NCBI GenBank assembly: GCA_963834845.1 | Contig: CAWICY010000003.1 | Coordinates: 61,114 to 125,113, forward strand | Direction: 5' to 3' | DNA: 64,000 nt | DNA from: an uncultured Pseudomonadota bacterium | GTDB taxonomy: Bacteria; Pseudomonadota; Gammaproteobacteria; Burkholderiales; SG8-39 | In this document: in pieces, positions 21,277-54,990 of the stretch | Position numbering within the stretch: the first letter of the stretch is position 1 | How the letters are laid out: each line of letters starts with the position of its first letter | Notes under the pieces: generated by a model | The model's input: the letters and a program-made list of their open reading frames with translations, nothing else | What the model was told of the DNA's origin: nothing | Database searches by the model: none | Program-made: the position numbers and the translations under genes

Positions 21277-21289
21277 ACTTCCCATGCAC

Positions 21290-21342
21290 GGGAGATGGCA
21301 TTCCTCCCTCGAGAAACCGCCGCAAGGCTGATGATGCCTACG
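21290..21342 (+). ncRNA. Fluoride riboswitch (crcB motif) aptamer
   Basis: GGAGAUGGCAUUCCUCC...AAACCGCC-GCAA-GGCUGAUGAUGCCUAC matches the consensus; directly upstream of crcB. Confidence 0.93.
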
Positions 21343-21380
21343 TGAGTCGCCGGAGTGGGGCGGAAGCGTAGGCATTTTTT
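21334..21380 (+). terminator. Riboswitch expression-platform terminator
   Basis: ATGCCTACG (21334-21342, aptamer 3' strand) pairs with CGTAGGCAT (21367-21375), followed by a T-run. Confidence 0.75.
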
Positions 21381-21428
21381 CTTCCCCTCTCCGACGCAGG
21401 CGGAACCACAACTGTCGGAGGTGTGCGC

Positions 21429-21815
21429 GTGAGTCTCTTCGGTTTCCTGGTGGTCGGTTGCGGCGCTGCCGCGGGCGCCTGGCTGCGCTGGTGGCTGGGC
21501 CTCGTTCTGAACCCGATGTTTCCTACGGTGCCGCTGGGTACTTTCGCGGCCAACATGGTCGGCGGCTACCTGATGGGCATTTCGCTCGGCGCATTCACCA
21601 GCTTCCAGGCTCTATCGCCCGAGGCGCGGCTGTTTATCACCACCGGATTCCTGGGCGGGCTGACGACCTTCTCGACGTTCTCGGCCGAAGCCACCACGCT
21701 GCTCGCGCGGCAGCAGCTCGGCTGGGGCGCGCTGCTGATCGGCGGCCACGTGGCGGGCTCGATCCTCATGACCTTTGCGGGCATCGCCACGGCGCGCCTG
21801 CTGCTTCGCTTTTAG
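21429..21815 (+). CDS. crcB: Fluoride efflux channel Fluc
   Basis: GAWLRW, PLGTFAANMVGG, TGFLGGLTTFSTFSAE; SD GGAGG 7 nt before GTG. Confidence 0.95.
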   Translation: MSLFGFLVVGCGAAAGAWLRWWLGLVLNPMFPTVPLGTFAANMVGGYLMGISLGAFTSFQALSPEARLFITTGFLGGLTTFSTFSAEATTLLARQQLGWGALLIGGHVAGSILMTFAGIATARLLLRF

Positions 21816-21833: not shown

Positions 21834-22157
21834 ATGCAGGGCATATCGCTGCGCATCTACATGCACGAGAACCATCGCCATCACGGCGTGCTCCTGTACG
21901 AGTGGCTGCTCGAGCAGGCCAAGGAGATGGGAATCCACGGCGGGTCGGCGTTTCGCGCCATCGCCGGCTACGGCCGCCACGGCGTGCTGCACGAGCAGCA
22001 CTTCTTCGAGCTGGCGGGCGATGTGCCGGTGGTGGTCGAGTTCATCGTCGGCGACGAGGAGGCGCAGCGCCTGCTGGACCTGGCGCGGCGCGAGAAGGTG
22101 CGCGCGTTCTTCACCAGGACGGTGATCGAATTCGGCACGCTCAACGGCGGCGCGTGA
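21834..22157 (+). CDS. DUF190-family (PII-like) protein
   Basis: LRIYMHE..LYEWLL..GGSAFRAIAGYGRHG..LAGDVPVVVEF; commonly follows crcB. Confidence 0.88.
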   Translation: MQGISLRIYMHENHRHHGVLLYEWLLEQAKEMGIHGGSAFRAIAGYGRHGVLHEQHFFELAGDVPVVVEFIVGDEEAQRLLDLARREKVRAFFTRTVIEFGTLNGGA

Positions 22158-22175: not shown

Positions 22176-23981
22176 TCAAGCCTGTTGCAGGGCCGACTTC
22201 AGTTCGGCGAGCTCGGGTTCGGCGAGCGTTTCCTTCGCCAGCAGCATTTGCGCGCCGCGCTCGAGAATGTCGCGCTGGCGCTGGATGATGACGACCGCGC
22301 GGTCGAAGGCGTTCTTGACGATGTCGCGCACCGCGATGTCGATCTCGCGCGCCGTTTCCTCGCTGTACTCGCGCTGCTGCGCCACCGGAACGCCGAGGAA
22401 GTTCGGGCGCTCCTCGTCGAAGGACACGTAGCCCAGCTTCTCGACCATGCCGTAGCGCAGCGCCATGCTGCGCGCGATGCCGGTCACCTTGGCGAGGTCG
22501 TCGGCCGCGCCGGTGGACAGGTGGCCGAACACGACGTGCTCGGCGGCGCGCCCGCCGAGCAGCACCGTCATCTTGTTCTCCAGCTCCTCGCGCGTCATGA
22601 GGAAGCGATCCTCGGTGGGGCGCTGGATGGTGTAGCCGAGCGCGCCGATGCCGCGCGGGATGATGGAGATCTTGTGCACGGGGTCGGAGCCCGGCACCGA
22701 CATCGCGACCAGCGCGTGCCCCATCTCGTGGTAGGCGACCGTGCGCCGCTCCTTCTCGTTGAGCACCCGGCTCCGCTTCTCCAGGCCGGCGACGATGCGC
22801 TCGACCGCCTGGGTGAAGTCCTCCAGCGTCACCGAGTCCGCGCTGCGCCGCGTCGCGAGCAGCGCCGCCTCGTTCACCAGGTTGGCGAGGTCCGCGCCGG
22901 AGAATCCGGGCGTGAGCGCTGCAATCTGCTCGAGCTCCACCCCGGGCGCGAGGCGGATCTTCTTCACGTGCACGGCGAGGATCTGGAGGCGCCCCTTCTT
23001 GTCGGGCCGGTCGACCAGCACCTGCCGGTCGAAGCGACCCGCGCGCAGCAGCGCCGGATCGAGGATCTCCGGGCGGTTGGTGGCCGCGAGCAGCACCAGC
23101 CCCGTGCTCGGGTCGAAGCCGTCCAGCTCCGAGAGCAGCTGGTTGAGCGTCTGCTCCTTCTCGTCGTGCCCGCCCATCAGGCCGGTGCCGCGTGCGCGGC
23201 CCAGAGCGTCGAGCTCGTCAATGAAGATGATCGCAGGGGCCTTCAGCCGCGCCTGCTCAAACAGGTCGCGCACGCGCGCGGCGCCCACGCCGACGAACAT
23301 CTCGACGAACTCGGAGCCCGATATGGAAAAGAACGGCACGCCGGCCTCGCCGGCGACCGCGCGCGCGAGCAACGTCTTGCCGGTGCCCGGCGGGCCGACC
23401 AGCAGCACGCCCTTGGGCACGTGCGCTCCGAGGCGGCCGTAACGGGCGGGGTCTTTGAGGAATTCGACCACTTCCTGCAGCTCGGCTTTGGCCTCATCCA
23501 CGCCGGCCACGTCCGCGAAGGTGACGCCGGTCTGCTTCTCGACGTAGACCTTGGCGCGGCTCTTGCCGATACTCATGAAGCCGCCCATGCCCTGCTGGCT
23601 GGCGAAGCGCCGAACCAGGAAGAACCACACGCCGAAGAACACCAGCGCCGGCACTACCCAGGAGAGCAGGTCGCGCAGGAAGGTGCTCTCGTAGACGCGC
23701 GTGAACTTGACGTTGTATTTCGACAGCCGATCGGCGATGTCGGGCTGGACGATGTTCGCGACCACGGTGCTCTTGCCGGCCTGTGGGGACTTCAGCTTGC
23801 CGGTGATGGTCTGATCCGAGACCACCACCTCCGAGATCTGGTTGTCGGCGAGCAGCTTCTCGAACTGGCTGTAGGGCACCACCTCGACGGTTTGCACCTG
23901 GTGCCACCACTGCTGCACCAGGGTGATGGCGAAAAAGGCGAAGATCAGGTAGGCAATGTTGACTAAGGTTCGTTTTTCCAT
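22176..23981 (-). CDS. ftsH: ATP-dependent zinc metalloprotease FtsH (paralog)
   Basis: Two TM helices, [36 protein letters not shown] zinc motif. Confidence 0.95.
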
Positions 23982-24005
23982 CGTCTTGGCCGGGGCTTTT
24001 TGGCA

Positions 24006-24034
24006 ATGTGGGGGCTGGTCCCCGGCTTGGCAAG
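24006..24034 (-). promoter_or_regulatory. sigma32-like promoter for ftsH
   Basis: CTTGCCA-13 nt-CCCCCACAT on minus strand. Confidence 0.55.
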
Positions 24035-24056
24035 CCCCGAAGGCGGCGTCTAGGCG

Positions 24057-24084
24057 CTTGAAACCGCGCCCAAAGGCCCCATTT
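24057..24084 (+). promoter_or_regulatory. sigma32 promoter for clpB
   Basis: CTTGAAA-13 nt-CCCCATTT, near-consensus RpoH promoter. Confidence 0.85.
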
Positions 24085-24115
24085 GCCTTCCAGGAATTCG
24101 ATTAGGATCAGGGCG

Positions 24116-26707
24116 ATGCGCTTCGACAAATTCACCACCAAGCTGCAGGAGGCTCTGGCGGAAGCCCAGAGCATGGCCGTCGGGCAGGATCACCAGTACA
24201 TCGAGCCACAGCACCTGCTGCTCGCGCTGCTCGAGCAGGAGGAGGGTGGCGCCGCGGCGCTGGTCGCCAAGGCAGGGGGCAATGCAGGCACCCTAAAGCA
24301 GGCGCTGCGCCAGGCGGTTGCCAGGCTGCCCAAGGTCGAAGGTGCCGGAGGCGAGGTACACGTTTCGCGCGACCTCACGGCGCTGCTCAACGTCACCGAC
24401 AAGGAGGCGCAGAAACGCGGTGACCAGTACATCGCCTCCGAGATGTTTCTGCTGGCCGCGGTTGCGGACAAGGGCGAGACCGGCAAGCTGCTCAAGCAGG
24501 CGGGCGTCGCCAAGGGCGCGCTCGAGAAGGCGATCGAGCAGGTGCGCGGCGGTGCCAGCGTGACCGGACAGGCCGACGAGTCGCAGCGCCAGGCGCTCGC
24601 CAAGTACACGCTCGACCTCACCGAGCGCGCACGGCAGGGCAAGCTCGATCCGGTGATCGGGCGCGACGACGAGATCCGACGCGCGATCCAGATCCTGCAG
24701 CGGCGCACCAAGAACAACCCCGTGCTGATCGGCGAGCCCGGAGTGGGCAAGACCGCGATCGTCGAAGGCCTCGCGCAGCGCATCGTCAACGGCGAGGTGC
24801 CCGAAACACTGAAGAACAAGCGCGTGCTGGTGCTCGACATGGCTTCGCTGCTGGCGGGCGCGAAGTATCGCGGCGAGTTCGAGGAGCGCCTCAAATCGGT
24901 GCTCAAGGAGCTGGCGCAGGATGAGGGCAACACCATCGTCTTCATCGACGAGCTGCACACCATGGTGGGCGCGGGCAAGGCCGAGGGTGCGATCGACGCC
25001 GGCAACATGCTGAAACCCGCTCTCGCGCGCGGCGAGCTGCATTGCATCGGCGCCACCACGCTGGATGAATACCGCAAGTACGTCGAAAAGGACGCGGCGC
25101 TCGAGCGCCGCTTCCAGAAGGTGCTGATCGGCGAGCCCAGCGTGGAGGCGACCATCGCCATACTGCGCGGCCTGCAGGAAAAGTACGAGGTGCACCACGG
25201 CGTCGAGATCACCGACCCGGCGATCGTCGCCGCGGCGGAGCTGTCGCACCGCTACATCACCGACCGTTTCCTGCCCGACAAGGCGATCGATCTGATCGAC
25301 GAGGCGGCGGCGCGCATCAAGATGGAGATCGATTCGAAGCCCGAGTCGATGGACCGTCTCGACCGGCGCCTGATTCAGCTGCGCATCGAGCGCGAGGCGG
25401 TGAAGAAGGAGAAGGACGAGGCCTCGCAGAAGCGCCTCGGCCTCATCGAGGCGGAGATCGCCAAGCTGGAGAAGGAATACTCGGACCTGGAGGAAATCTG
25501 GAAGGCCGAGAAGGCGCAGGTGGCCGGCAGCCAGCACGTCAAGGAAGAGCTCGAGAAGCTCAAGCAGCAGATGGAAGACGCGCGCCGCAAGGGCGACTGG
25601 CAGAAGATGAGCGAGATCCAGTACGGCAGAATCCCGCAGCTCGAGGCGCAGCTCAAGCAGACCGAGAAGCCGGAGCCGAAGAAAGCCAGGCTGGTGCGCA
25701 CCCAGGTCGGCGCGGAGGAGATCGCCGAGGTGGTGTCGCGCGCCACCGGCATCCCGGTTTCGAAGATGATGCAGGGCGAGCGCGACAAGCTGCTCAAGAT
25801 GGAAGACAAGCTCCACGAGCGCGTCGTCGGCCAGGACGAGGCGGTGCGCCTCGTTTCGGACGCGATTCGGCGCTCGCGCTCGGGCCTTTCTGATCCCAAT
25901 CGGCCTTATGGAAGCTTTCTATTTTTGGGACCAACGGGAGTCGGCAAAACGGAACTCTGCAAGGCGCTCGCCGCGTTCCTGTTCGATTCGGAAGAGCACC
26001 TGATCCGCGTCGACATGTCCGAGTTCATGGAAAAGCACTCGGTCGCGCGCCTGATCGGCGCGCCCCCGGGATACGTCGGCTACGAGGAGGGCGGCCACCT
26101 CACCGAGCAGGTGCGCAGGAAGCCCTACTCGGTGATCCTGTTCGACGAGATCGAGAAGGCGCACCCGGACGTGTTCAACGTGCTCTTGCAGGTGCTCGAC
26201 GATGGGCGTCTGACCGACGGACAGGGGCGCACCGTGGACTTCAAGAACACGGTGATCGTGATGACCTCGAACCTCGGCTCGCACATGATCCAGCAGATGG
26301 CCGACAGCGACTATGGCGTGGTGAAGCTCGCGGTGATGGCCGAGGTGAAGACGCATTTCCGCCCCGAGTTCATCAACCGCATCGACGAGGTGGTCGTGTT
26401 CCACGGCCTGGGCGAAGCCCAGATCGCCGCCATCGCCAGGATCCAGCTCGCGGTCCTCAGGCAGCGGCTGGCGAAGATGGACTACGCGCTCGAAGTATCG
26501 GACGCGGCGATCGCGGAACTGGCGAAGGTCGGCTTCGACCCGGTGTACGGCGCGCGGCCTCTCAAGCGCGCGATCCAGTCCGAGATCGAGAATCCGCTGT
26601 CGAAGGCCATCCTCGAGGGGCGCTTCGCGCCGAAAGACACCGTCGTGGTCGACTTCCGCGGCGGCAAGATGATCTTCGACAAGGCGCCGTCACGCGCTGC
26701 CGCCTGA
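24116..26707 (+). CDS. clpB: ATP-dependent disaggregase ClpB
   Basis: MRFDKFTTK; GEPGVGKT and GPTGVGKTE Walker A motifs; coiled-coil M-domain; [10 protein letters not shown]. Confidence 0.98.
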
Positions 26708-26761
26708 CGCGACTGCGGCCTCTGCCCGGGGCACCGACCCGCCAGGGTCGCAGCACACCGC

Positions 26762-27382
26762 CTAGCTAGCGCGCAGCCTTTTGGGGCGCGCAGCGTGCGC
26801 ACCGGTGGCGCGCTCCAGCAGCTCCTTCCACAAGCTGCTCGTGTCCTCGCGGAAAATGTCGTCCTCGTCGGCGGGCAGGACGTACCAGTCGTGGCGTAGC
26901 AGCTCGCCCTCCAGCTGGTGCGGCGCCCAACCCGCGAATCCGACGTACAGCCGATAGCGCCCGCCGCTTCGCTGCAGCAGCGCCTTGATGTTCTCGGGGT
27001 GCATGCTCAGGTACGTCGCCTCGAGCAGGTGGAAGGCCGGCGCCGCAGGCTTCCGTACGGAGCGAAACACCGCGACGACCGCCTGCCTGAGGATCGGGCC
27101 GCCGAAGAATACCGCGTCGGCATAGTTGGACGTCGGCAGGTCCGGCGGCAGGATATCGGCCGCCTTCAGCGGCGTCGGGCGATTGAGTATCACGCCGACG
27201 GTTTCGGCCTCGGGCGTCTGCGTGGCAAGTACCACGGTCTGGCTGAAATTCGGATCGAGCAGGGTCGGTTTGGCGACCAGCAGGACTGCATTCGGCGGCT
27301 CTTCAGCGGGATCGCGCGCCTGAGAGGGAAGCGCAAGGGCGAGCGAGATGGCGCACAGCACGAAGGCGCAGCGGCGCGGCAT
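26762..27382 (-). CDS. YqgE/AlgH (DUF179) family protein with N-terminal signal peptide
   Basis: LLVAKPTLLDPNFSQTVVL, GVILNRP, FFGGP, GFAGWAPHQLEGE..W; start MPRRCAFVLCAISLALALPSQA. Confidence 0.85.
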   Translation of the reverse strand: MPRRCAFVLCAISLALALPSQARDPAEEPPNAVLLVAKPTLLDPNFSQTVVLATQTPEAETVGVILNRPTPLKAADILPPDLPTSNYADAVFFGGPILRQAVVAVFRSVRKPAAPAFHLLEATYLSMHPENIKALLQRSGGRYRLYVGFAGWAPHQLEGELLRHDWYVLPADEDDIFREDTSSLWKELLERATGAHAARPKRLRAS

Positions 27383-27429
27383 GCGGCCATTATCCTGCCT
27401 GCCCGGTCGTGTCCTCAACCCAGGTCGGC

Positions 27430-27443
27430 TTGACCGGGATCAA
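27430..27443 (+). promoter_or_regulatory. FNR/Anr-type box (class II) upstream of USP
   Basis: TTGAC-CGGG-ATCAA (1 mismatch to TTGAT-N4-ATCAA); -10 TAGCCT at 27465-27470 fits -41.5 geometry. Confidence 0.75.
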
Positions 27444-27501
27444 TGGACCGCGCGGGTGGCAGGCTAGCCTGAACGTGCGGAACGCTGCATGGGAGACGGC
27501 G

Positions 27502-27924
27502 GTGAAACGCTTGCTGGTACCGGTGGATGGTTCGGAGGGCTCGTCGCACGCGCTGCGGCATGCGATCGAGCGCGCGCGCGAGGCGGGCGCCGAAGTGCAC
27601 GTGCTACACGTCGAGCCGCCGATGGCCTACGAGGAACTGCGCGTGTACGTGATGCGCGAGGAAATCAGGCAGCTGCGGCGCAAGGCTTGCGAGCGCGTGC
27701 TGGCGGCCGCTGCTACCGTGCTCGACGAAGCCAAGGTGTCGCATGTGTCGCACCTGCTCGAGGGCGAGGTCGGTCAGTCCATCGCGCGCTTCGCCGACGC
27801 GCACCATATCGATGAAGTGATCATGGGGACGCGCGGCATGGGGGCCACGGGCAACCTGTTGCTGGGTTCCGTCGCGACGCGCGTCGTTCATCTGGCGCCG
27901 GTGCCCGTAACCTTGGTCAAGTAA
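27502..27924 (+). CDS. Universal stress protein
   Basis: LLVPVDGSEGS, VIMGTRGMG...LLGSVATRVVH.APVPVTLVK; SD GGGAG. Confidence 0.92.
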   Translation: MKRLLVPVDGSEGSSHALRHAIERAREAGAEVHVLHVEPPMAYEELRVYVMREEIRQLRRKACERVLAAAATVLDEAKVSHVSHLLEGEVGQSIARFADAHHIDEVIMGTRGMGATGNLLLGSVATRVVHLAPVPVTLVK

Positions 27925-28036
27925 GCTCCTGCTGCAGCGCAGCAATGCCTTCTCACAACAGCTTACACATCGAAACGTGAGACTCCGCTAGAAATACGGC
28001 TTCTGGCGCAAGCGCCGGAATGGGGAAGGCAATACC

Positions 28037-29886
<1,850 letters not shown>

Positions 29887-29890
<4 letters not shown>

Positions 29891-33817: not shown

Positions 33818-34006
33818 GGGATCCTGGAAAAACTGCAATTGTAGCGGGAGCCGCCCCTGGCTCCGCGGAAATGAGCGAAACCGGCGTCAAATGCTGAGGC
33901 TATAATCAACCAGCTAATGCTGGGTTATGCGGCCGGGGGGCCCGGAGGGAGCCCCTCGCGACGTAGAATAAATAAATGCGCCGCATGCGGCGCAAGGAGC
34001 CGGCAA

Positions 34007-34447
34007 ATGAAGTATCGCAAGATCCTTCTCGCCTACAACGGGTCCAACGAGGGCAAGCGCGCGCTGCTGGAATGCGCGGAGCTGGCAAACTTCCTCGGCG
34101 CCGAAACCCACCTGCTCGCGGTTGCGAGCATGCCGCCCAGCCTGTTCCTCACCGAAGGCTTCGTTCCCGAGGAACTCCTCGAAGAGGAGAAGAAGCGCAC
34201 CCAATCGGTGCTCGACGAAGGCATCCGCTCGCTGACCGAGAAGGGCTTCAAGGCCGCCGGCCACCTTGCGGTGGGTGAGCCGGTGGAGGAGATCTGCCGC
34301 GTGGCGAAGGAGCTCGGTGTCGACCTGATCGTGATCGGCCACAACCAGAATACGTCGTTTGCGGCGCGCTGGTGGAAGGGCTCGGTAGGCGCATCGCTGC
34401 TCGATTACGCACCCTGCAGCATCCTGATCGCACTGTCGCGCGCCTGA
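34007..34447 (+). CDS. Universal stress protein
   Basis: YRKILLAYNGS, GEPVEEI, DLIVIGH, GSVGASLLDYAPCSILI; SD AAGGAG. Confidence 0.92.
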   Translation: MKYRKILLAYNGSNEGKRALLECAELANFLGAETHLLAVASMPPSLFLTEGFVPEELLEEEKKRTQSVLDEGIRSLTEKGFKAAGHLAVGEPVEEICRVAKELGVDLIVIGHNQNTSFAARWWKGSVGASLLDYAPCSILIALSRA

Positions 34448-34505: not shown

Positions 34506-36842
34506 ATGCAGAGCTTCGGCACCAAAGGCAGGCTTGAAGACGAGCGCATGTTGAAGGGTCTGGGGCGCTACGTCTCCGACTGGGATCTTCCGCGGCAGGC
34601 CCATGCGCATTTCCTGCGCTCCGACCGGCCGCACGCGCGGATCGTCTCGATCGACACCAGCGCGGCGCTGGCGATGCCGGGCGTGATCGCGGTGCTCACC
34701 GGAGAGGACGTCGCGGCGGCGGGTGCGCAGGGACTGCCGGCGGCGGCGCCGGTCAAGGGACGCGACGGCTCGGAGCAGCCCAGGGTGCACCGTCCCGCGC
34801 TGGCGCAAGGCAAGGTACGCCACGTCGGCGAGGCTGTGGCGCTGGTGATCGCCGAGACGCGGCCGCAGGCGCAGGACGCGGCCGAGGCGGTGCTGGTCGA
34901 GTACGAGGACCTGCCCGCCGTGATCGGAGCGCAGGAGGCCATCGCGCCGGGCGCGCCGCAGCTGCACGACGGCATCGCCGGAAATCTCCTGCTCGACTTC
35001 GCCGGCGGCGACGAGGCGGCGACCAACGCGGCATTCGAGCGCGCGGCGCGCGTGGTGTCGCTCAACGCCTATCACACGCGCGTGGTGGGCAATCCGATGG
35101 AGCCGCGCGCCTGCACCGGCGTCTACGACGCGGCGGCCGACATGTACCAGCTGTATGCCTGCACCCAGGGTGCCTCGGCGATGCGCGGCCAGATCGCCGC
35201 CGTGCTGGGCATCGCGCCGGAAAAGATGCGCGTCGTCGCGGAGGAGGTCGGCGGCGGGTTCGGCGTGCGGTTCAATGCCTACCCGGAATACTGCGCCGTG
35301 CTGATCGCGGCCAAGAAGCTCGGCAGGCCGGTGAAGTGGGTCGGCACGCGCTCCGACGTGTTTCTCTCCGACGAGCAGGCGCGCGACGTGGTGCACCGCG
35401 GCGAGATGGCGCTCGACGATTCGGGGCGCATCCTCGGCATGCGCTTCGATTTCGTCTGCAACCTGGGCGCCTACGTGGCCTTCACCGGCACCTTCGTCAA
35501 CACCGTCAACCTGGTCAATGTGGCGAGCGGGGTGTACGACGTGCAGGCGATCCACGTGCGCGCCCGGCTGGCATTGACCAACACGGTGCCGACGGCGGCC
35601 TACCGCGGCGCCGGCCGGCCGGTGAGCTCCTACGCGATCGAGCGGCTGGTCGATCAGGCGGCCTGGGAGCTCAAGATGGACCCGGCCGAGTTCAGGCGCC
35701 GCAACCTGGTGCCCAAGAGCGCCTTTCCCTTCAAGATCGCGACCGGCTTCGAGTACGACTGCGGCGACTTCGAGGGCGTGCTCGCCGATGCGCTGAAGGC
35801 GGCGGACTGGAAGGGGTTCGAGACACGTCGCGCGGCCTCGGCGAAGCGCGGCTGGCTGCGCGGGCGCGGCATCGCCTGCTACATCGAGGCGACCGGCTCG
35901 GGCGGATTCGCGCCCTACGACCAGGTGCAGGTCTCGTGGGAGGAGCAAGCGCGCATCACGCTGCGCGCGACCTCCCACAACCACGGCCAGGGGCACGAAA
36001 CGGCGTTCGCGCAGATCGTCGCTGGCGTGCTCGGCGTGCCGATGGAGTCGATCCGGCTGCGCACCGCCGACCCCGACATGAACCTGACCGGGAACCCGAC
36101 CGGCGGCTCGCGCTCGCTGCACGGGGTGGGCAGCGTGATGCTGCTCGCGTCGCAGGAAGTGGTGAAGAAGGGCATGGCGCTGGCGGCCGACGATCTGGAG
36201 GTGGCGCAAGCCGACATCGAATTCGTCGACGGCCGCTACCGGGTCAAGGGCACCGACCGCGAGGTTGCGATCACGGCGCTAGCGAAGAAGCACCGCGGCG
36301 CGCTGGATGTCAACCTGAAGGACAAGAAGGTGGGATCGACGTTCCCGAACGGTTGCCACATCGCGGAGGTCGAGATCGAGCCCGACACGGGGATGGTGGA
36401 GATCGTCTCCTACCTCGCCTGCGACGATGCCGGCAACATCATCAACGATCAGTTGGTCGAGGGCCAGATGCAGGGCGGGATCACGCAGGGCGCCGGCCAC
36501 ATCCTGGGCGAGCAGGCGCTCTACGACCGCGACACCGGCCAGCTGCTCACCGGCAGCTTCATGGATTACCCGATGCCGCGCGCGCTGCTCGTCGACGGCC
36601 TGAGGGTGATCCACCACCCGGTGCCGACCAAGACCAATCCGCTGGGCGCCAAGGGCGTCGGCGAGGCCGGCGTCACGGGCTCGATGCCGTGCATCATGAA
36701 CGCGATCCTCGACGCCCTGCGCACGGCGGGCGTGACTCATTTCGACATGCCGGCGAGCCCGCACCGCGTCTGGCAGGCGCTCGCCGCGGCGAAGACCGGC
36801 AATCCGCGCGCCATGGCCGTGGCGCAGTCGCCTACGCTATAA
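34506..36842 (+). CDS. Xanthine dehydrogenase-family molybdopterin-binding subunit (CoxL form II-like)
   Basis: EDERMLKGLGRY, VGGGFG, AYRGAGRP, HGQGHET, QMQGGITQG, GAKGVGEAG. Confidence 0.92.
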   Translation: MQSFGTKGRLEDERMLKGLGRYVSDWDLPRQAHAHFLRSDRPHARIVSIDTSAALAMPGVIAVLTGEDVAAAGAQGLPAAAPVKGRDGSEQPRVHRPALAQGKVRHVGEAVALVIAETRPQAQDAAEAVLVEYEDLPAVIGAQEAIAPGAPQLHDGIAGNLLLDFAGGDEAATNAAFERAARVVSLNAYHTRVVGNPMEPRACTGVYDAAADMYQLYACTQGASAMRGQIAAVLGIAPEKMRVVAEEVGGGFGVRFNAYPEYCAVLIAAKKLGRPVKWVGTRSDVFLSDEQARDVVHRGEMALDDSGRILGMRFDFVCNLGAYVAFTGTFVNTVNLVNVASGVYDVQAIHVRARLALTNTVPTAAYRGAGRPVSSYAIERLVDQAAWELKMDPAEFRRRNLVPKSAFPFKIATGFEYDCGDFEGVLADALKAADWKGFETRRAASAKRGWLRGRGIACYIEATGSGGFAPYDQVQVSWEEQARITLRATSHNHGQGHETAFAQIVAGVLGVPMESIRLRTADPDMNLTGNPTGGSRSLHGVGSVMLLASQEVVKKGMALAADDLEVAQADIEFVDGRYRVKGTDREVAITALAKKHRGALDVNLKDKKVGSTFPNGCHIAEVEIEPDTGMVEIVSYLACDDAGNIINDQLVEGQMQGGITQGAGHILGEQALYDRDTGQLLTGSFMDYPMPRALLVDGLRVIHHPVPTKTNPLGAKGVGEAGVTGSMPCIMNAILDALRTAGVTHFDMPASPHRVWQALAAAKTGNPRAMAVAQSPTL

Positions 36843-36855
36843 GAGGAGGTGCCAC

Positions 36856-37200
36856 GTGAAGGCAGCGATGAAGCCGATCAGGAACGAATTCCCGTGGGGC
36901 ACGATCGAGTGGCTGGCCAACGACGAGGTGGGCAATAGCCATGAGCTTTCGCTTGCGCGCATGACGCTGCCCGCGGGCAATGCGACTGATACCCATATAC
37001 ACGCCAACTGCGAGGAATCGATATACGTGGTGCGCGGCAAGGTGGAGTGCCGCATCGGCAAGGACCGTGTGCAGATGTCGGCGGGCGGGCAGTCGGTGGT
37101 TCCCAGGGGGGCGGTGCACGGTATCCGCAACGTCGGCGACGCGCCGGCGGAAATCATCCTGTCCTATTCGTCGGCGGCGCGCGCGTTCGAGCTGGCCTGA
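36856..37200 (+). CDS. Cupin-domain protein
   Basis: HIHANCEESIYVVRG and VPRGAVHGIRNVG cupin motifs; SD GAGGAGG. Confidence 0.88.
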   Translation: MKAAMKPIRNEFPWGTIEWLANDEVGNSHELSLARMTLPAGNATDTHIHANCEESIYVVRGKVECRIGKDRVQMSAGGQSVVPRGAVHGIRNVGDAPAEIILSYSSAARAFELA

Positions 37201-37240
37201 AACGCGGAGCTGCGCAGCACGCGGTCTAAGCTGCGCAACG

Positions 37241-37648
37241 ATGCAGTTCGATTATTTCGAGCACGACGCCGACGTCGGGGTGATCGGGCGCGGAGCCACG
37301 CTTGAGCAGGCTTTTGTCGCGGGCGCGCAGGCGGTGTTCTCCCTTATCACGCAGCTCGATGCCATCCAGCAGCGCGAACGACTCGACGTGGAATTCGAGG
37401 AGGCGGACGCCGAGCTCGCGTTCGTGACCTGGATCAACCTGCTGCTCGCACGGGCGCAGGAAAATGAGCTTGTGCTAGGAAAATTCGAGCTCGAGCGTGA
37501 CGGCGATCGCTGGCGCGGACGCGCCTGGGGAGAGCCCTGGCGTGCCGACATGGAGCGCGGCGTCGACGTCAAGGGCGCGACCCTGACCATGCTATCGGTG
37601 GCGCAGGCAGATGGCGGCTGGGAAGCGCGCTGCATCGTGGACGTGTGA
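37241..37648 (+). CDS. Archease
   Basis: YFEHDADVGVIGRG, DVKGAT, C-terminal IVDV. Confidence 0.92.
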   Translation: MQFDYFEHDADVGVIGRGATLEQAFVAGAQAVFSLITQLDAIQQRERLDVEFEEADAELAFVTWINLLLARAQENELVLGKFELERDGDRWRGRAWGEPWRADMERGVDVKGATLTMLSVAQADGGWEARCIVDV

Positions 37649-37658
37649 GGCGACGAAC

Positions 37659-39092
37659 ATGGACATGACGCGCCTCAACGCGATCGACCCTTGGACGTGG
37701 ACCGTGCCGCTCGCTCTCGGCGAGTCGCGGCATGAGGTGAAGCTCTACGGCTCGCGCGAGCTGCTCGAGACCATGGACGACAAGGTGCTCGAGCAGATCA
37801 CCAACGTGGCGCGGCTGCCAGGCCTGGTCGGCGCGGCGATGACCATGCCGGATGCGCATTGGGGCTACGGCTTCCCAATCGGCGGCGTGGCGGCCTTCGA
37901 CGCCGAGCGCGGCGGCATCATTTCGGCCGGCGGCGTGGGATTCGATATTTCCTGCGGCATTCGCTGCCTGCGCACCGACCTGACCCTCGCCGACATCATG
38001 CCGCGGCTCAAGCCGCTCGCCGACGGCCTGTACCGCGACATCCCGGCCGGGGTGGGCGAGGGCGGGCACATCCGGCTCGACGTTCCGGCGCTCGACCGCG
38101 TGCTCGCGGGTGGCGCCGAGTGGGCGGTCGAGCAGGGCTATGGCGAGCGATCGGACCTCGAGTACGTGGAGGAGAAGGGGCGCGCTTCGGGTGCCGTGCC
38201 GGGGAGCGTTTCCGCGCTGGCGAAGAAGCGCCAGCTGGGCGAAATGGGCACGCTCGGCTCCGGCAACCACTACCTCGAGGTGCAGTGGGTCGAGCGCATC
38301 CTCGATGCGGAGGCGGCGCGCGCATTTGGGCTTTTCGAGGGTCAGATCTTGATCTCGATTCATTGTGGCTCACGCGGCCTCGGTCACCAGATCGGCACGG
38401 AGTACCTGGTCAGCCTCGCCAAGGCCGCCGGGCGCCTGGGCATTGCCTTGCCCGATCGCGAGCTCGCTTGCGCGCCGATCAACTCCGACGAAGGTCGCGC
38501 CTACCTCGGCGCGATGCACGCGGCGACGAACTGCGCCCTCGCCAACCGCCAGATCCTTGCGCATCTGACGCGCCGCGTGTTCGCGCATCATTTTCCGCAG
38601 CGGCGGCTCGAGACTCTGTTCGACGTCTCGCACAACACCTGCAAGGCGGAGTGGCACGAGGTCGAGGGAAGGCGGCGCCTGCTCTACGTGCACCGCAAGG
38701 GCGCCACGCGCGCCTTCGGCCCGGGGCACCCCGCCTTGCCTGCGCGCTACCGTGAGGTCGGCCAGCCGGTGATCATCGGCGGCAGCATGGGCACGGGTTC
38801 GTACATCCTCGCCGGCACCGCGGAGAGCGAGGCGCGCGCGTTCAGCTCGGCAAGCCACGGCGCCGGCCGTGCGATGAGTCGCCACGCCGCGCTGAAGCGC
38901 TGGCAGGGCCGCGAGCTGCTGAAGGATCTCGAGACCCGCGGGGTGCTCGTGCGCACGCGCTCGATGCGCGGCGCGGCCGAGGAGGCGCCCGGCGCCTACA
39001 AGGACGTCGAGCGTGTTGCCGAGGCGACCGAGCGCGCCGGCCTCGCGCGCCGCGTTGCGGTGCTGCGGCCGAAGATTTGCGTCAAGGGCTGA
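37659..39092 (+). CDS. rtcB: RNA 3'-phosphate/2',3'-cyclic phosphate ligase RtcB (archaeal/archease-dependent type)
   Basis: MPDAHWGYGFPIGGV, GFDISCG, GTLGSGNHYLE, HCGSRG, DVSHN, HRKGAT, SHGAGR, EEAPGAYKD. Confidence 0.96.
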   Translation: MDMTRLNAIDPWTWTVPLALGESRHEVKLYGSRELLETMDDKVLEQITNVARLPGLVGAAMTMPDAHWGYGFPIGGVAAFDAERGGIISAGGVGFDISCGIRCLRTDLTLADIMPRLKPLADGLYRDIPAGVGEGGHIRLDVPALDRVLAGGAEWAVEQGYGERSDLEYVEEKGRASGAVPGSVSALAKKRQLGEMGTLGSGNHYLEVQWVERILDAEAARAFGLFEGQILISIHCGSRGLGHQIGTEYLVSLAKAAGRLGIALPDRELACAPINSDEGRAYLGAMHAATNCALANRQILAHLTRRVFAHHFPQRRLETLFDVSHNTCKAEWHEVEGRRRLLYVHRKGATRAFGPGHPALPARYREVGQPVIIGGSMGTGSYILAGTAESEARAFSSASHGAGRAMSRHAALKRWQGRELLKDLETRGVLVRTRSMRGAAEEAPGAYKDVERVAEATERAGLARRVAVLRPKICVKG

Positions 39093-39096
39093 AAGG

Positions 39097-40653
39097 GTGA
39101 TCGAGGAACTGCGCGATCCGGGGCGCTACCCGCATCCGGCGGACCACGTCGAAGTGCTGGAAACGCACATCTCGTGGGTGCTGCTGGCCGGCGAATATGC
39201 CTACAAGGTGAAGAAGCCGGTCAACCTCGGCTTTCTCGACTTCAGCACCCTGGAGGCGCGGCACTACTATTGCGAGGAGGAGTTGCGGCTCAACCGCCGC
39301 ACGGCGCCGCGGCTCTACCTGGAGGTGGTGCCGATCACCGGCAGTGAATCGGCGCCGCAGCTCGGCGGAACGGGCGATGCGATCGAGTACGCAGTGAAGA
39401 TGCGGCGCTTTCCGCAGGAAGCGCTGCTCAGCCGCATGGCGCTGGACGGCGCGCTCGGCGAAGCGCATATCGACGCGCTGGCGCACGGCATCGCCGCGTT
39501 CCATGCGCGCATCGCGCGTGCCGACCCGGCGCGCTCGCACGGTTCGCCCGCCGACGTGCTGGCGCCCGCCGTGCAGAATATCGACCAGATCGAGGCATTG
39601 ATCGGCTCGGGCGCAGAGGTGCCAGAGCTGGAGCGGCTGCGCGGCTGGACGCGGGACGAGCACGCGCGCCTGCGCGCCATCTTCGAGGCGCGCAAGCGCG
39701 AGGGCTACGTGCGCGAATGCCACGGCGACCTGCACCTGGGCAACATCGCGCTCATCGACGACGAGCCGACGCCGTTCGACGGCATCGAGTTCAACGAGGC
39801 GCTCAGGTGGATCGACGTCATGAACGAGGTCGCGTTCCTGGTGATGGACCTGCTGGACCGCCGGCTGCCGCGGCTCGCATACCGCTTTCTGAACGCTTAT
39901 CTGGAGGCTACCGGGGACTATGCCGGACTCGCGGTGCTGCGCTTTTACCTGGTGTACCGCGCCCTGGTGCGGGCCAAGGTGGCGTGCATCCGCGTGCACC
40001 AGCAGGGGCTGCCGGGCGACGAACAGCGCCGTGCCGGGCGCGACTACCTCGAGTACCTGCGCCTCGCGCACTCGCTCGCTCTGGAGTCGAAGCGCGCGCT
40101 GATCGTCATGCACGGCCTCTCGGGATCGGGAAAGACGACCATCGCCCAATATCTGCTCGAGACGTACGGCGCAGTGCGCGTTCGCTCGGACATCGAGCGC
40201 AAGCGCCTGCTGGGCCTCGAGGCCCGGGCACGCACCGGCTCCGCACCCGGCGCAGGCACCTATGCCGCGGACCTCACGGCGCGAACCTACGAGCGGCTGG
40301 CGACCCTGTCCCGCGCGGTCCTGGCGGCAGGCTATCCGGCGATCGTCGACGCGACCTTTCTCGCTCGCGCGCAGCGCGAGGCGTTCGCCGCGCTGGCGCG
40401 CGACATGGGACTGCCCTTTGCCATTGCGGCCTGCGAGGCGCCGGAAGCGGTGCTGCGCGACAGGGTGGCGAGCCGCGAGCGGGAAGCGAGGGATGCTTCG
40501 GAGGCGGGCGTGAGCGTGCTCGAGTACCAGCTCGCGACCTGCGAGCCGCTGTCGGATGCGGAGCGGCGCGACTGCTTCACATTCGACTCGCGGCGGGAGC
40601 CGCGCGAGTCGGCATCTGCGCTCGCACGCAAGCTCGGATTGACGCTATCCTGA
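39097..40653 (+). CDS. Bifunctional APH-like kinase / P-loop (AAA_33) nucleotide kinase (Rv2004c-like)
   Basis: ETHISWVLL..YKVKKPV.LGFLDFST, ECHGDLHLGNI, FDGIEFN; HGLSGSGKTT, RSDIERK, IVDATF, DASEA; GTG start inferred. Confidence 0.9.
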   Translation: MIEELRDPGRYPHPADHVEVLETHISWVLLAGEYAYKVKKPVNLGFLDFSTLEARHYYCEEELRLNRRTAPRLYLEVVPITGSESAPQLGGTGDAIEYAVKMRRFPQEALLSRMALDGALGEAHIDALAHGIAAFHARIARADPARSHGSPADVLAPAVQNIDQIEALIGSGAEVPELERLRGWTRDEHARLRAIFEARKREGYVRECHGDLHLGNIALIDDEPTPFDGIEFNEALRWIDVMNEVAFLVMDLLDRRLPRLAYRFLNAYLEATGDYAGLAVLRFYLVYRALVRAKVACIRVHQQGLPGDEQRRAGRDYLEYLRLAHSLALESKRALIVMHGLSGSGKTTIAQYLLETYGAVRVRSDIERKRLLGLEARARTGSAPGAGTYAADLTARTYERLATLSRAVLAAGYPAIVDATFLARAQREAFAALARDMGLPFAIAACEAPEAVLRDRVASREREARDASEAGVSVLEYQLATCEPLSDAERRDCFTFDSRREPRESASALARKLGLTLS

Positions 40654-40659
40654 GCGGCG

Positions 40660-41625
40660 ATGAAGTATTTTGATGTGTTCAATGGCGACGCGGACGGCAT
40701 CTGTGCGCTGCACCAACTGCGCCTCGCTGACCCGCAGCATGCCGAGCTGGTGACCGGGGTGAAGCGCGACATCGAGCTGCTGCAGCGCGTCGCGGCTACC
40801 GCGGGCGACCGCGTCACGGTGCTCGACGTTTCACTCGAGCGCAATCGCGGCGCCCTGCTCAGGCTCCTCGATCGGGGCGTCAAGGTGCGCTATTTCGATC
40901 ACCACTCCGCCGGAGAGCTGCCGTCGCATCCGGGGCTCGAGACCTTCATCGACCAGGCGGGGGGCGTGTGCACCAGCATGCTCGTGGACCGCTACCTGGA
41001 GGGCAGATACCGAATCTGGGCGGTGGTCGCCGCGTTCGGCGACCAGCTGCCGGAATCCGCGCTGCGCCTCGGCGCCGGCCTCGCGCTCGGTGCGCCGCAG
41101 CTGCAGGTGCTGCGCGCGCTCGGTGAGAACCTCAACTACAACGCCTACGGCGAAACCGAGGCCGATCTGCTGGTGCCGCCTGCCGAGCTGTTCCGCGTCG
41201 TGAGCCGCTTCGCCGATCCGTTTCTCCTGAGCGCTGAAGAACCGTTGGTTCGGCGCCTGAGCGGGCAGCGCGCGGCGGACATGGACCAGGCGCTGCGGGT
41301 CGCGCCGTACCGCTCCGCGCCCAGTTTCGACGCTTTCATGCTGCCCGACGAGGCCTGGAGCCGGCGCGTCAGCGGCAGCTTCGCCAATCACCTTGCGCGC
41401 ACCGACCCGGGCCGGGCGCATGCGGTGCTCACCCCGAGCTCCCGTGGCGGGTATTCGGTCAGCGTGCGCGCGCCCGCGGCGGGCGGCATTTTTGCGGCGG
41501 ACGTGTGCAGACGCTTTCCGACCGGTGGCGGGCGCCGCGAGGCCGGAGGCATCGACCGGCTCGAGCCGCGCCGGCTCGACGAGTTTCTCGCCGTGCTCGA
41601 GCAGAGCTACCCGTCGGGCGACTAG
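40660..41625 (+). CDS. DHH-family phosphoesterase
   Basis: FNGDADG, VLDVS, YFDHH, AAFGD, C-terminal SVSVRAP...GGGRREAGG. Confidence 0.85.
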   Translation: MKYFDVFNGDADGICALHQLRLADPQHAELVTGVKRDIELLQRVAATAGDRVTVLDVSLERNRGALLRLLDRGVKVRYFDHHSAGELPSHPGLETFIDQAGGVCTSMLVDRYLEGRYRIWAVVAAFGDQLPESALRLGAGLALGAPQLQVLRALGENLNYNAYGETEADLLVPPAELFRVVSRFADPFLLSAEEPLVRRLSGQRAADMDQALRVAPYRSAPSFDAFMLPDEAWSRRVSGSFANHLARTDPGRAHAVLTPSSRGGYSVSVRAPAAGGIFAADVCRRFPTGGGRREAGGIDRLEPRRLDEFLAVLEQSYPSGD

Positions 41626-47412: not shown

Positions 47413-47779
47413 TGGTGGAGGCGGCGGGAATCGAACCCGCGTCCGCAAGCCCTAGACAGTCAGGACTACATGCTTAGCCTGGTCATTTGGATCTCGCCTC
47501 GCGCCCGCCGACCGGCAGGCTGACGCTCAGCCAGCCGCTTCGACGGATCCCCCCGGCCAAGCGGCCAGACCGGGAGGAGAGGCTGATGTAAATGACGCTG
47601 CACCCCTTTCGGGGCCTAGCCCATCAGCAGGCTAGTGCAGCGTCTCGCCGGTGTTAGGCGGCGAGAGCGAAACGCTCGTCGTTGGCGTTTATGTGTTTCC
47701 AGACTGGATTTGCGAGGTCATCTGGTCCTCGGCATGCCCTGCGCTGCTTCGCGACCCACGTCGAGACCAAGTCGCCCCC
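47413..47779 (-). ncRNA. ssrA: tmRNA
   Basis: 5' GGGGGCG pairs with 3' CGCCUCC-ACCA (G3.U70); T-arm GGUUCGAUUCC; tag ORF 47654-47686 encodes ANDERFALAA-stop. Confidence 0.97.
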
Positions 47780-52374: not shown

Positions 52375-54990
52375 ATGGATCAATTCGCAAAAGAAACCCT
52401 CCCCGTAAGCCTCGAAGAGGAAATGCGCCGCTCGTATCTCGATTACGCGATGAGCGTGATCGTGGGGCGGGCGCTGCCCGACGTTCGTGACGGCCTCAAG
52501 CCGGTGCACCGGCGCATCCTCTACGGCATGAACGAGCTCGGCAACCACTGGAACCGCCCATACAAGAAATCGGCGCGCGTGTCCGGCGACGTGATGGGCA
52601 AGTTCCATCCGCACGGCGACGCCGCGATCTACGACACGATGGTCCGCATGGCGCAGAGCTTTAGCCTGCGCTACCTGCTGATCGACGGACAGGGAAATTT
52701 CGGCTCCGTAGACGGCGACAACGCGGCGGCGTCGCGCTATACGGAGGTGAGGCTCACCAAATTCGCGCACGAAATGCTGGCCGACATCGACCGCGAAACG
52801 GTCGACTTCGTTCCGAACTATGACGGCCAGGAGCAGGAGCCCGCGGTGCTGCCGGCGCGAGTCCCGAACCTGCTGGTCAACGGCTCATCCGGAATCGCGG
52901 TCGGCATGGCGACCAATATTCCGCCGCACAACCTCTCCGAAGTGGTCGATGCCTGCCTGCTGGTGCTGCGCCAGCCGCATTGCGCGATCGAGGAGCTTAT
53001 CAAGCTGATTCCCGCGCCAGATTTCCCGACCGCCGGGATCATCTACGGCGTTTCCGGCGTGCACGAGGGCTACCGCACAGGTCGCGGACGTGTGGTGATG
53101 CGCGCGCGCACCCACTTCGAGGAAATCGGCAAGGGCGACCGCCAGGCAGTGATCGTCGACGAGCTGCCCTACCAGGTCAACAAGAAAGCGCTGCTCGAGC
53201 GCATCGCCGAGCTGGTCACGGAGAAGCGCATCGAGGGGATTTCCGACATCCGCGACGAGTCCGACAAGTCGGGCATGCGTGTCGTGATCGAACTCAAGCG
53301 CGGCGAGATTCCCGAGGTCGTGCTCAACAACCTCTACAAGCAGACGCAGTTGCAGGACAGCTTCGGGATGAACATGGTCGCGCTGGTCGACGGTCAGCCC
53401 AAGCTGCTCGATCTGAAATCCATGATCGAGGCCTTCATCGCGCATCGTCGCGAGGTGGTGACGCGGCGCACGGTATTCGATCTGCGCAAGGCGCGCGAGC
53501 GCGGTCACGTCCTCGAAGGCCTGGCGGTTGCGCTGTCGAACGTCGACGAGGTAATCGACGCTGATCAAGCGCGCGCCGACCCCGGCCGAGGCGAAGCGCG
53601 GGCTGATGGCGAAGCCCTGGCACTCGGAGCTGGTGCGCGAGATGCTCACGCGGGCATCCTCTGAGCAATTCCGCCCTGCCGGCCTGGCGCAGGAGTTCGG
53701 CCTGAAGGCCGACGGCTACCGCCTGTCCGACGAGCAGGCGCAGGCGATCCTCGAGCTGCGCCTGCAGCGCCTCACCGGCCTCGAGCAGGACAAGATCCGC
53801 GACGAGTACAGGGAGGTTATGGAGGTGATCGCCGATCTCTCGACATCCTCGAGAAGCCCGCGCGCATCGTGGCGATCATCGCGGATGAGCTGGGCAGCAT
53901 CAGGGAAGAGTTCGGCGATGCTCGACGCAGCGAGATCGTTACGGTCGCCGAGGATATCTCGCTCGAGGACCTGATCGCGCCGCAGGACATGGTGGTCACG
54001 TTCTCGCACAGCGGCTACGTGAAGTCGCAGCCGCTCGCCGACTACCGCGCGCAGCGGCGCGGCGGGCGGGGGAGAATGGCAGCGGCGACCAAGGAGGACG
54101 ACTTCATCGAGCGGCTGTTCGTGGCGCATTCGCACGATAACTTGCTGTGCTTCTCCAGCCGCGGGCGGCTTTACTGGCTCAAGGTCTACGAGGTGCCGCA
54201 AGGCAGCCGCACCAGCCGCGGCAAGCCGGTGGTGAACATGTTTCCGCTCGAAGAGGGCGAGAAGATCACCGCCGTGGTCCCGGTGCGGGAGTTCGACGAG
54301 CATCACTACGTGTTCATGGCCACGGCGCATGGGACGGTCAAGAAGACGCCGCTGGCGGATTTCTCGCGTCCGCGACCGTCGGGGATCATCGCCGTGGGTC
54401 TCGAGGACGGCGACTACCTGATCGGCGCGGCGCTCACTGACGGCAGCTGCGACGCGATGCTGTTCTCCTCGGACGGCAAAGCGGTGCGCTTTGCGGAGGG
54501 GGAGGTGCGGCCGATGGGCCGTCAAGCGACAGGTGTGCGCGGCATGCGGCTCGGCAAGGGGGTGCGCGTGGTGTGCATGCTGGTGGCGAAGAGCGAGGAT
54601 CAGACGGTTCTCACCGCTACCGAGAGAGGCTACGGCAAGCGTACGCCGGTGAGGGAATACACGCGGCACGGTCGCGGTGGCCAGGGAATGATCGCGATCC
54701 AGACCTCGGAGCGTAACGGCAAGCTGGTCGGCGCGGTCATGGTGGACGACCGCGACGAGGTCATGCTGATCTCCACGGGCGGCGTGCTGATCCGCACCGC
54801 GGTCGCGCAGATCCGCGAGCAGGGACGCAGCACGCAGGGCGTGACGCTGATTTCGCTCGGGGAGGGCGAGAAGCTCGCGGGCCTGGAGCGCATCGACGAG
54901 CGCGACGACCAGATGAACGGCAACGGCGCCGACGGTGAGGACGCCGGCGATGCGCACGAGGAGGGGCCGTCGGGGGAGATCCTGCACTGA
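52375..54990 (+). CDS. gyrA: DNA gyrase subunit A (two apparent frameshifts, ~53558 and ~53838, probably sequence errors)
   Basis: [25 protein letters not shown], GyrA-box QRRGGRG; homology continues across three ORFs. Confidence 0.95.

Follow-up and report, generated by a model that had tools for sequence, protein, structure and literature searches.

An archease–RtcB cassette with unusual, recurrent kinase and DHH phosphoesterase partners in an uncultured Burkholderiales bacterium: probably a lineage-specific assembly

Why does the gene for an RNA ligase stand packed against those for a kinase and a phosphoesterase? The question is raised by a stretch of 64,000 nucleotides (hereafter the window) from an uncultured bacterium of the Burkholderiales lineage SG8-39 (GenBank assembly GCA_963834845.1, contig CAWICY010000003.1, positions 61,114 to 125,113), in which archease, the ligase RtcB, a two-domain kinase and a DHH/DHHA1 phosphoesterase are encoded head to tail. 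RtcB joins RNA ends bearing a 3'-phosphate or 2',3'-cyclic phosphate to 5'-hydroxyl ends, and archease is its activator. An earlier, sequence-only reading proposed a candidate four-gene operon in which the kinase and the DHH protein could edit or triage RNA ends, or nucleotide by-products, for the ligase. The comparisons below favour a different answer, namely that the cluster is an archease–RtcB cassette with unusual, recurrent partners, and probably a lineage-specific joining of three modules from a widespread network of genes that serve ribosome and RNA maintenance in stasis or at low oxygen, rather than a dedicated end-healing pathway. This best explanation, taken as a whole, is given a probability of about 0.55. 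The particular chemistry suggested for the kinase and the DHH enzyme, recycling of nucleoside 3',5'-bisphosphates (pNp), is a tentative part of it and, considered by itself, doubtful.

The gene cluster

Archease (37241–37648) and an RtcB of the archaeal/eukaryal type (37659–39092) are identified by Pfam matches that span the whole profiles (PF01951, E 2e-32, positions 1–136 of 136; PF01139, E 4e-165, positions 1–426 of 426). They are followed by the kinase (39097–40653; 518 residues, GTG start, Pfam APH and AAA_33) and the phosphoesterase (40660–41625; 321 residues), the latter recognised by its motifs and fold, as its Pfam DHHA1 match is below threshold. All four genes lie on the forward strand with intergenic gaps of 10, 4 and 6 nucleotides (nt). 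An alignment of the ligase with PH1602 of Pyrococcus horikoshii (E 1e-150) covers its full length and shows that Asp95, Cys98, Asn-His near 203, His234, His near 329/330 and His404 are kept, comprising the metal ligands (Asp/Cys, Asn-His, His) and the GMP-accepting histidine. It is the sole RtcB of the genome. The sequence-only reading was therefore correct in describing four adjacent same-strand genes and an archaeal-type RtcB with intact motifs.

That reading nonetheless overlooked three further genes on the same strand, which lie directly upstream of archease with gaps of 58, 13 and 40 nt. The run opens with an open reading frame (ORF) for a universal stress protein (USP; 33917–34447; Pfam Usp, E 2e-23), whose probable true start, on inspection of the sequence, is the ATG at 34008, preceded by AAGGAG. 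Next comes the molybdopterin-binding large subunit of a molybdenum (Mo) oxidoreductase of the aldehyde oxidase/CO-dehydrogenase type (34506–36842; Pfam MoCoBD_1/2 and Ald_Xan_dh_C; NCBIfam), and then a small cupin protein (36856–37200; Pfam Cupin_2, E 7e-15). The transcription unit may thus extend over seven genes, from USP through DHH.

The earlier statement that rtcA, rtcR and a sigma54 promoter are missing is true for the window, although the genome does carry RtcA on another contig. No rtcA was found in the window; the only RtcA match of the genome (G000) is at C4:2970714–2971679, where it stands beside a phosphoribosyltransferase-like gene, the two together covering C4:2970714–2972345. 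RtcR (PF06956) was not found in the genome, which is 96% complete. The sigma54 pattern occurs 56 times in the window against 72 expected, with no match in the relevant intergenic regions. Further, a simple promoter scan found no sigma70-like site, and a simple terminator scan placed terminator-like hairpins inside coding regions only.

Conservation of the gene order

The neighbourhood of the kinase was compared across its 80 closest loci, one per species, with neighbours located by tblastn. The full four-gene order of the window is present in three of these loci, one complete (L004) and two truncated by contig ends (L001 and L003), all from close relatives. Six further loci from this clade (L002, L005, L006, L066, L007 and L073) carry the Mo-oxidoreductase, cupin, kinase and DHH genes but neither archease nor RtcB. 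The corresponding gap is occupied in L002 by a Na+/H+ exchanger gene of the opposite strand, and in L007 and L073 alignment of the junction has the kinase gene starting directly after the cupin stop codon. The RtcB-bearing members of the clade do not form one group on the kinase tree, and the history of archease–RtcB at this spot must therefore include two or more losses or gains. Since the order is limited to close relatives, the very point on which the sequence-only reading had staked its proposal, a strict four-gene operon is refuted. These comparisons show what looks like a recent local assembly, so that generalising from this single locus is not warranted.

Recurrent but facultative links

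While the four-gene order is not conserved, the pairing of the kinase with RtcB recurs. In 15 of the 80 loci the two genes are no more than 6 kb apart, and four arrangements occur: RtcB upstream on the same strand, as in the window (three loci), kinase followed by archease and rtcB (three), convergent (eight) and divergent (one). These adjacencies fall into four clades and require six changes on the kinase tree (76 rows). By an estimate that sets about 12 kb against a genome of 3–4 Mb, chance alone would give far fewer than one such locus. The kinase family and RtcB are thus associated non-randomly, as had been supposed.

Co-occurrence was assessed in an even sample of 400 genomes of the class, in which archaeal-type RtcB was called at E below 1e-100. 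The kinase is present in 182 of them (a tally that includes two genomes flagged as unpublished, G296 and G039) and archaeal-type RtcB in 86. The kinase is encoded in 67 of the 86 genomes with archaeal-type RtcB versus 115 of the 314 without, these being raw counts uncorrected for kinship. Positions of both genes are listed for 63 of the 67 co-carrying genomes, and in 59 of the 63 the two lie on separate contigs or at a distance of over 11 kb. The kinase also follows an E. coli-type RtcB, itself preceded by a Band7 gene, in one genome (G135). The kinase–RtcB link is real but facultative.

The same is true of the kinase and the DHH gene. The two are adjacent in 27 of the 80 loci, with DHH downstream in 22 and upstream in five, all five being Nitrosospira, and the pairing needs six changes on the tree. 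In the class sample, DHH occurs in 66 of 401 genomes, 38 of which also carry the kinase. Neighbour counts in the fetched loci come from tblastn and from calls filtered by GC content at third codon positions (GC3), which replaced a clustering of all ORFs that had merged kinase, DHH and archease through spurious ORFs in GC-rich DNA; the GC3-filtered call itself loses genes, keeping 13 DHH ORFs compared with 27 by tblastn. Structure prediction of a kinase–DHH complex scored 0.01 against a mark of 0.32, which gives no answer either way.

The two-domain kinase

The kinase comprises an APH/choline-kinase-like part (residues ~1–330) and an AAA_33 P-loop part (~335–518), modelled with a mean predicted local distance difference test score (pLDDT) of 93.5. 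The Pfam match to AAA_33 is strong (residues 335–485, E 6e-39) and that to APH narrowly above its cut-off (residues 60–279, E 3e-5, 24.2 bits vs 23.2). Both domains keep their motifs in 33 relatives. Invariant in the N-terminal domain are K37/K39/K40, E61/E62, H209-G-D211-x-H213-x-x-N216 and D228; in the P-loop domain GxxGxGK (G340...G345-K346) and R368 are invariant, and D365 is at least 90% conserved.

A profile built from the 33 relatives matches, among solved structures, PNKP (6e-6), the CthPnkp kinase (4e-5), PSTK (6e-5), APS (adenosine 5'-phosphosulfate) kinase (1e-4) and T4 Pnk (7e-3). Pfam gives additional matches to Zeta_toxin and to an APS-kinase-like family, and an NCBIfam match to Pnkp is far below its cut-off. 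On the strength of the profile matches to these enzymes, the P-loop domain can be placed by sequence in a clan whose acceptors are ribose or terminal hydroxyl groups in nucleotides and nucleic acids, a placement from which its own acceptor cannot be read. Neither domain is assignable to RNA ends from its fold or profile matches.

Close relatives carry the source names 'aminoglycoside phosphotransferase family enzyme/predicted kinase' and 'AAA family ATPase'. Five of them (P0041, P0049, P0054, P0056 and P0088) are longer, at ~875–904 residues, with an extra C-terminal part of ~360 residues. No Pfam match was found in that part, all five long forms matching APH and AAA_33 only. A fusion of the DHH protein to the kinase in these ~880-residue homologues was considered and rejected, as P0049 has no similarity to the DHH protein. 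Short matches link the extra part to the N-terminal kinase domain and hint weakly that it may be another APH-like domain. Short stand-alone P-loop relatives in the protein database come mostly from contigs of 1–4 kb and are possibly truncated; split forms were absent from the 14 matches in 391 genomes of the phylum, all of which lie in frames of more than 500 residues.

The DHH phosphoesterase

Pfam detects DHHA1 alone in the last protein of the cluster (E 5e-4, 20.8 bits vs a cut-off of 25.9) and misses the DHH domain. The DHH motifs D10/D12 (DxD), D56, D80-H81-H82 and D128 are nevertheless invariant in 24 relatives. Equally invariant is G289-G-G-R292, that is, GGGR in place of the usual DHHA1 motif GGGH. 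The structural model (pLDDT 93.8) finds its best fold match in the PAP (3'-phosphoadenosine 5'-phosphate) phosphatase 8a8k (E 3e-13, TM 0.70), with further matches to RecJ, NrnA, Rv2837c and GdpP at a probability of 1.00. On the modelled fold, the protein is a genuine DHH enzyme with the two-domain DHH plus DHHA1 architecture.

Its neighbours elsewhere hint at a substrate. Across 63 orthologue loci of the even class sample, sulfate-activation genes lie within 6 kb of the DHH gene in 16 (APS kinase in 11, ATP sulfurylase in five and a sulfate symporter-like gene in seven), several of them only 11–350 nt away. Enzymes that use PAPS (3'-phosphoadenosine 5'-phosphosulfate) release PAP. Because of these neighbours and of this release, the family is most simply read as a PAP/pNp 3'-phosphatase, which may also act as a nanoRNase in the way NrnA does. 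From sequence and model together, the protein is probably such a phosphatase or a nanoRNase, and its fold and the sulfate-activation neighbours of its orthologues favour this over the RNA-end editor first envisaged. The methanogen enzyme 8a8k (Methanothermococcus thermolithotrophicus) and NrnA/Rv2837c resemble it in their two-domain DHH/DHHA1 build, a length of ~320 residues and intact metal motifs, and the adjacency of its orthologues to APS kinase is a further likeness to the 8a8k family. It differs from them in an identity of only 14–19%, in GGGR for GGGH and in a DHH domain that escapes Pfam.

As a separate observation, the DHH orthologue adjoins the dihydroorotate dehydrogenase gene pyrD in nine of the 63 genomes (L092, L112, L126, L127, L135–L137, L139 and L147).

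A stasis and low-oxygen neighbourhood

For the wider surroundings of the kinase in the 80 loci, ORFs were clustered, cluster representatives were scanned with Pfam, and neighbours were counted by tblastn. The most frequent neighbour is a ribosome hibernation factor in which S30AE is joined to a cold-shock domain (CSD), encoded beside the kinase in 18 loci (for example L045:3723–4295). It is followed by a phosphoribosyltransferase (PRTase; 11 loci), a Cpn60-like chaperonin (10), a CBS pair protein and a LonC-like protease (8 each), and Hsp20 and nicotinate phosphoribosyltransferase (NAPRTase; 7 each). EAL proteins also recur, and an alpha-glucan phosphorylase-like gene is found in 6–7 loci. The kinase–S30AE adjacency needs 11 changes on the kinase tree.

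Two genomes bring many of these genes together. In G257 (L083, C1:270000–287000), the kinase gene comes first in a run that also encodes a hydrolase, AdoHcyase, PCMT, Hsp70 and DnaJ. A divergent run holds a Balon-like baeRF12/Host_attach protein, archease, RtcB and DUF72, and between the two runs lies an FNR-type box (defined here as TTGAT-N4-ATCAA with at most one mismatch). In G165, archease–RtcB, S30AE, a tRNA-editing domain, DksA, LonC, USP and the kinase all fall within 11 kb.

FNR-type boxes occur 40–216 nt upstream of the kinase ORF in nine loci, and also precede S30AE, Cpn60-like, CBS and archease genes in kinase loci. In the window genome, an FNR-type box lies 64 nt upstream of the S30AE–CSD gene (G000:C4:2997742–2998275). 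The boxes are about tenfold denser in kinase loci than in shuffled sequence (85 per 900 kb vs 5–12). Box density as a mark of kinase loci was nevertheless rejected, as unrelated control loci are similar, and since density is not specific to the kinase only the position of the boxes is relied on. As an aside, some ten FNR-type boxes form an island (C4, 2.98–3.04 Mb) about 27 kb away from the RtcA gene of the window genome.

In gene content, the neighbourhood of the kinase family matches low-oxygen and dormancy regulons. According to the passages drawn on here, the DosR regulon of Mycobacterium tuberculosis includes the blocks Rv2003c–2007c and Rv2623–2631, of which Rv2631 is RtcB, as well as the ribosome-associated factor Rv0079 and the phosphoribosyltransferase Rv0571c (PMC5309233). 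Balon genes are described in stress operons with RaiA, Hsp20, DnaK/DnaJ and RtcB in a paper whose main text does not contain the word 'kinase' (PMC10901736), and the lxa low-oxygen locus of Burkholderia cenocepacia was likened to the DosR regulon by its authors (PMC3721108). What these systems share with the loci around the Betaproteobacteria kinase is RtcB, archease, a hibernation factor, Hsp20, CBS, USP, phosphoribosyltransferases and a Balon-like factor. They differ in that no regulator site was found before the window cluster, and in that the passages of the three papers mention neither the kinase nor any DHH enzyme as working with RtcB (PMC5309233, PMC3721108, PMC10901736).

Proposed function and alternatives

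These observations are most readily brought together if the three modules belong to a widespread stasis and low-oxygen network of genes for ribosome and RNA maintenance, whose stress regulation in the window genome we infer. The first module, archease and RtcB, would reseal breaks with a 3'-phosphate or 2',3'-cyclic phosphate and a 5'-hydroxyl in tRNA or rRNA of non-growing cells. The second is the very common two-domain kinase, with its intact APH fold, like that of small-molecule kinases, and a P-loop of the polynucleotide-kinase/APS-kinase clan, and the third the DHH/DHHA1 enzyme, which would remove the 3'-phosphate from PAP or pNp and perhaps degrade very short RNAs. Metal-independent RNases and toxins leave 3'-phosphorylated fragments and nucleoside 3'-monophosphates (3'-NMPs). 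The kinase and the DHH enzyme, as a looser pair, may process those 3'-phosphorylated nucleotides and oligonucleotides that RtcB cannot reseal: the P-loop domain would phosphorylate a free hydroxyl, turning a 3'-NMP or short RNA into pNp, and the DHH enzyme would strip the 3'-phosphate, turning pNp into a usable 5'-NMP. A 3'-NMP is the minimal substrate of Pnk.

Several observations count against this explanation. Co-transcription of the cluster is probable, judging from gene spacing alone, and the public sequencing runs listed are of soil, marsh and sediment DNA, none being RNA. No FNR-type box with up to two mismatches is present in 33839–34007 or 37201–37240, the sole box of the window with at most one mismatch (27430) precedes another USP gene, and the FNR-box islands of the genome (S30AE–CSD, PRTase, Hsp20, Cpn60-like/NAPRTase and LonC–USP–CBS) are on contig C4. 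The unrelated DHH control loci, often from AT-richer genomes, carry 58 boxes per 728 kb. Among the 63 genomes with listed positions, the kinase and RtcB are less than 2 kb apart in two, the window genome and G257; they are 8–11 kb apart in two more (G165 and G357) and 23 kb apart in G080. Three genomes whose RtcB is nearest to that of the window (G074, G247 and G393) lack the kinase. In the even class sample, DHH adjoins the kinase in one of 38 genomes, the window genome itself. Finally, the assignment of the kinase to the COG2187/Rv2004c-like family ('bifunctional aminoglycoside phosphotransferase/ATP-binding protein') is presumed here, and would make it a family member of a DosR-regulon protein of M. 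tuberculosis.

The strongest alternative is that there is no link to RNA at all. The kinase would act on a small molecule, a cofactor or a protein, such as a sugar, NAD or an adenosine nucleotide at its ribose (in the manner of APS kinase or zeta), or a damaged protein (in the manner of fructosamine kinase); the DHH enzyme would be a housekeeping PAP phosphatase, and both would have come to lie beside RtcB by shuffling within stress regulons. The folds are in keeping with this, as the N-terminal domain has its best structural counterparts in choline kinase, maltokinase, APH(2''), homoserine kinase and methylthioribose kinase, and the P-loop part matches the sugar kinase 4eun, which also scores 8e-6 in the profile comparison, about level with the polynucleotide kinases. 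So are the Zeta_toxin and APS-kinase-like Pfam matches, the NAPRTase (7 of 80), PRPP (phosphoribosyl pyrophosphate)-synthase-like, phosphoribosyltransferase, alpha-glucan phosphorylase-like, PCMT and chaperone neighbours of the kinase, and the sulfate genes (APS kinase, ATP sulfurylase and symporter) beside 16 of 63 DHH orthologues. However, six independent juxtapositions of the kinase with RtcB and eleven with S30AE exceed what regulon shuffling would easily produce, and an RNA or nucleotide substrate would suit a kinase whose best profile matches include enzymes acting on polynucleotides and tRNA. On balance this alternative is unlikely, if by no means far-fetched.

Less probable still is the dedicated end healing that the sequence-only reading had in mind, whereby the kinase and the DHH enzyme prepare or triage broken RNA ends for RtcB, as the kinase and phosphatase domains of Pnkp do for their ligase. 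Its appeal lies in the repeated and independent kinase–RtcB adjacency (four arrangements among 15 of the 80 loci, as well as G257 and G135), in gene gaps of 4–10 nt, in P-loop profile matches to PNKP, CthPnkp, PSTK and T4 Pnk, and in the nucleases RecJ and NrnA among the DHH relatives. Further, an RNA 3'-kinase that feeds RtcB is 'yet to be discovered' according to a preprint (PMC12776372). The Pnkp/Hen1 and T4 Pnk/Rnl systems offer a parallel, as they too encode an RNA ligase together with a phosphoesterase and a P-loop kinase from the clan seen here. The window differs from them in that RtcB needs a 3'-phosphate and a 5'-hydroxyl, the reverse of the ends that Pnkp makes, in a phosphoesterase of the DHH type and not calcineurin-type or HAD, and in a kinase with an additional APH-like domain. 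Against end healing, a 5'-kinase would destroy the 5'-hydroxyl which established RtcB chemistry requires. The genomic distribution is also unfavourable: the four-gene order is confined to close relatives, whose sisters lack archease–RtcB at the site; most genomes with both genes hold the kinase and RtcB apart; 115 genomes have the kinase without archaeal-type RtcB, while 19 of the 86 RtcB genomes, including those with the closest RtcB, have no kinase; and the DHH family is elsewhere tied to sulfate activation, not to RNA repair genes. Taken together, these points make dedicated end healing improbable.

PIN-type toxins and many RNases leave breaks with a 5'-phosphate and a 3'-hydroxyl. It is very improbable that the two accessory enzymes convert such ends into the 3'-phosphate and 5'-hydroxyl needed by RtcB, with the kinase supplying the sought-after RNA 3'-kinase activity (or a dual 3'/5' one) and the DHH enzyme taking off 5'-phosphates or trimming the ends. 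Such 'end inversion', if true, would mean a dormancy repair route and a function for the DosR-regulon kinase family.

Relation to known RtcB systems

The joining of stasis-network modules preferred here is best seen against two known settings of RtcB. Archease and RtcB form a 'tRNA splicing' operon in archaea and diverse bacteria, as described by Desai et al. (2014, PMC3973293; 2015, PMC4604427). The window is like it in having adjacent genes for archease and an archaeal-type RtcB with intact catalytic residues, which behave as a two-gene cassette. It differs in that a kinase and a DHH gene follow and in that three genes, for a USP, a subunit of a Mo-oxidoreductase and a cupin, stand at the head of the run. 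The rtcBA system of E. coli and Salmonella, under RtcR and sigma54, similarly employs an RtcB ligase for stress-linked RNA repair; here, in contrast, the ligase is of the archaeal type and comes with archease, RtcA is on another contig, and RtcR and a sigma54 promoter were not found. A review of RtcB says nothing of its gene neighbours, and a paper on Rv2004c gives no account of its domains. No paper linking the kinase or the DHH enzyme to RtcB was found, with the caveat that the RtcB-neighbourhood survey of Burroughs and Aravind (2016, NAR 44:8525) was outside the search and may cover it.

Other features of the window

A tmRNA gene (47413–47779, reverse strand; Rfam 202.8 bits; tag ANDERFALAA) lies 5.8 kb downstream of the cluster, and its nearness to RtcB may be coincidental. 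Upstream of the cluster, the region 22176–29890 holds stress-type genes, which encode an FtsH-like protease, ClpB, an AlgH-like protein, the USP preceded by the box at 27430 and a hybrid histidine kinase. Two RNA elements are present as well: a fluoride riboswitch (21282–21347, forward strand) precedes crcB (21423–21815) and a DUF190 gene (21834–22157), and a chrB-b RNA motif (12812–12863, reverse strand) adjoins a chromate transporter gene (10684–12534). The gyrA gene (52375–54990, forward strand) is split into two ORFs of the same frame (52375–53664 and 53869–54990); at ~53575–53840 its translation appears out of frame, with one stop codon, and the break may be a compensating pair of indels, possibly assembly errors.

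Significance

With 182 of 400 genomes of the class carrying it, the two-domain kinase is among the commoner uncharacterised enzymes of the Proteobacteria. Its repeated position by RtcB and ribosome hibernation factors, its pairing in several lineages with a probable pNp phosphatase and the intact motifs in both of its domains together make 3'-NMPs, pNp, RNA ends and adenosine nucleotides candidate substrates. The locus thereby offers concrete candidates for the substrate of a very common uncharacterised kinase.

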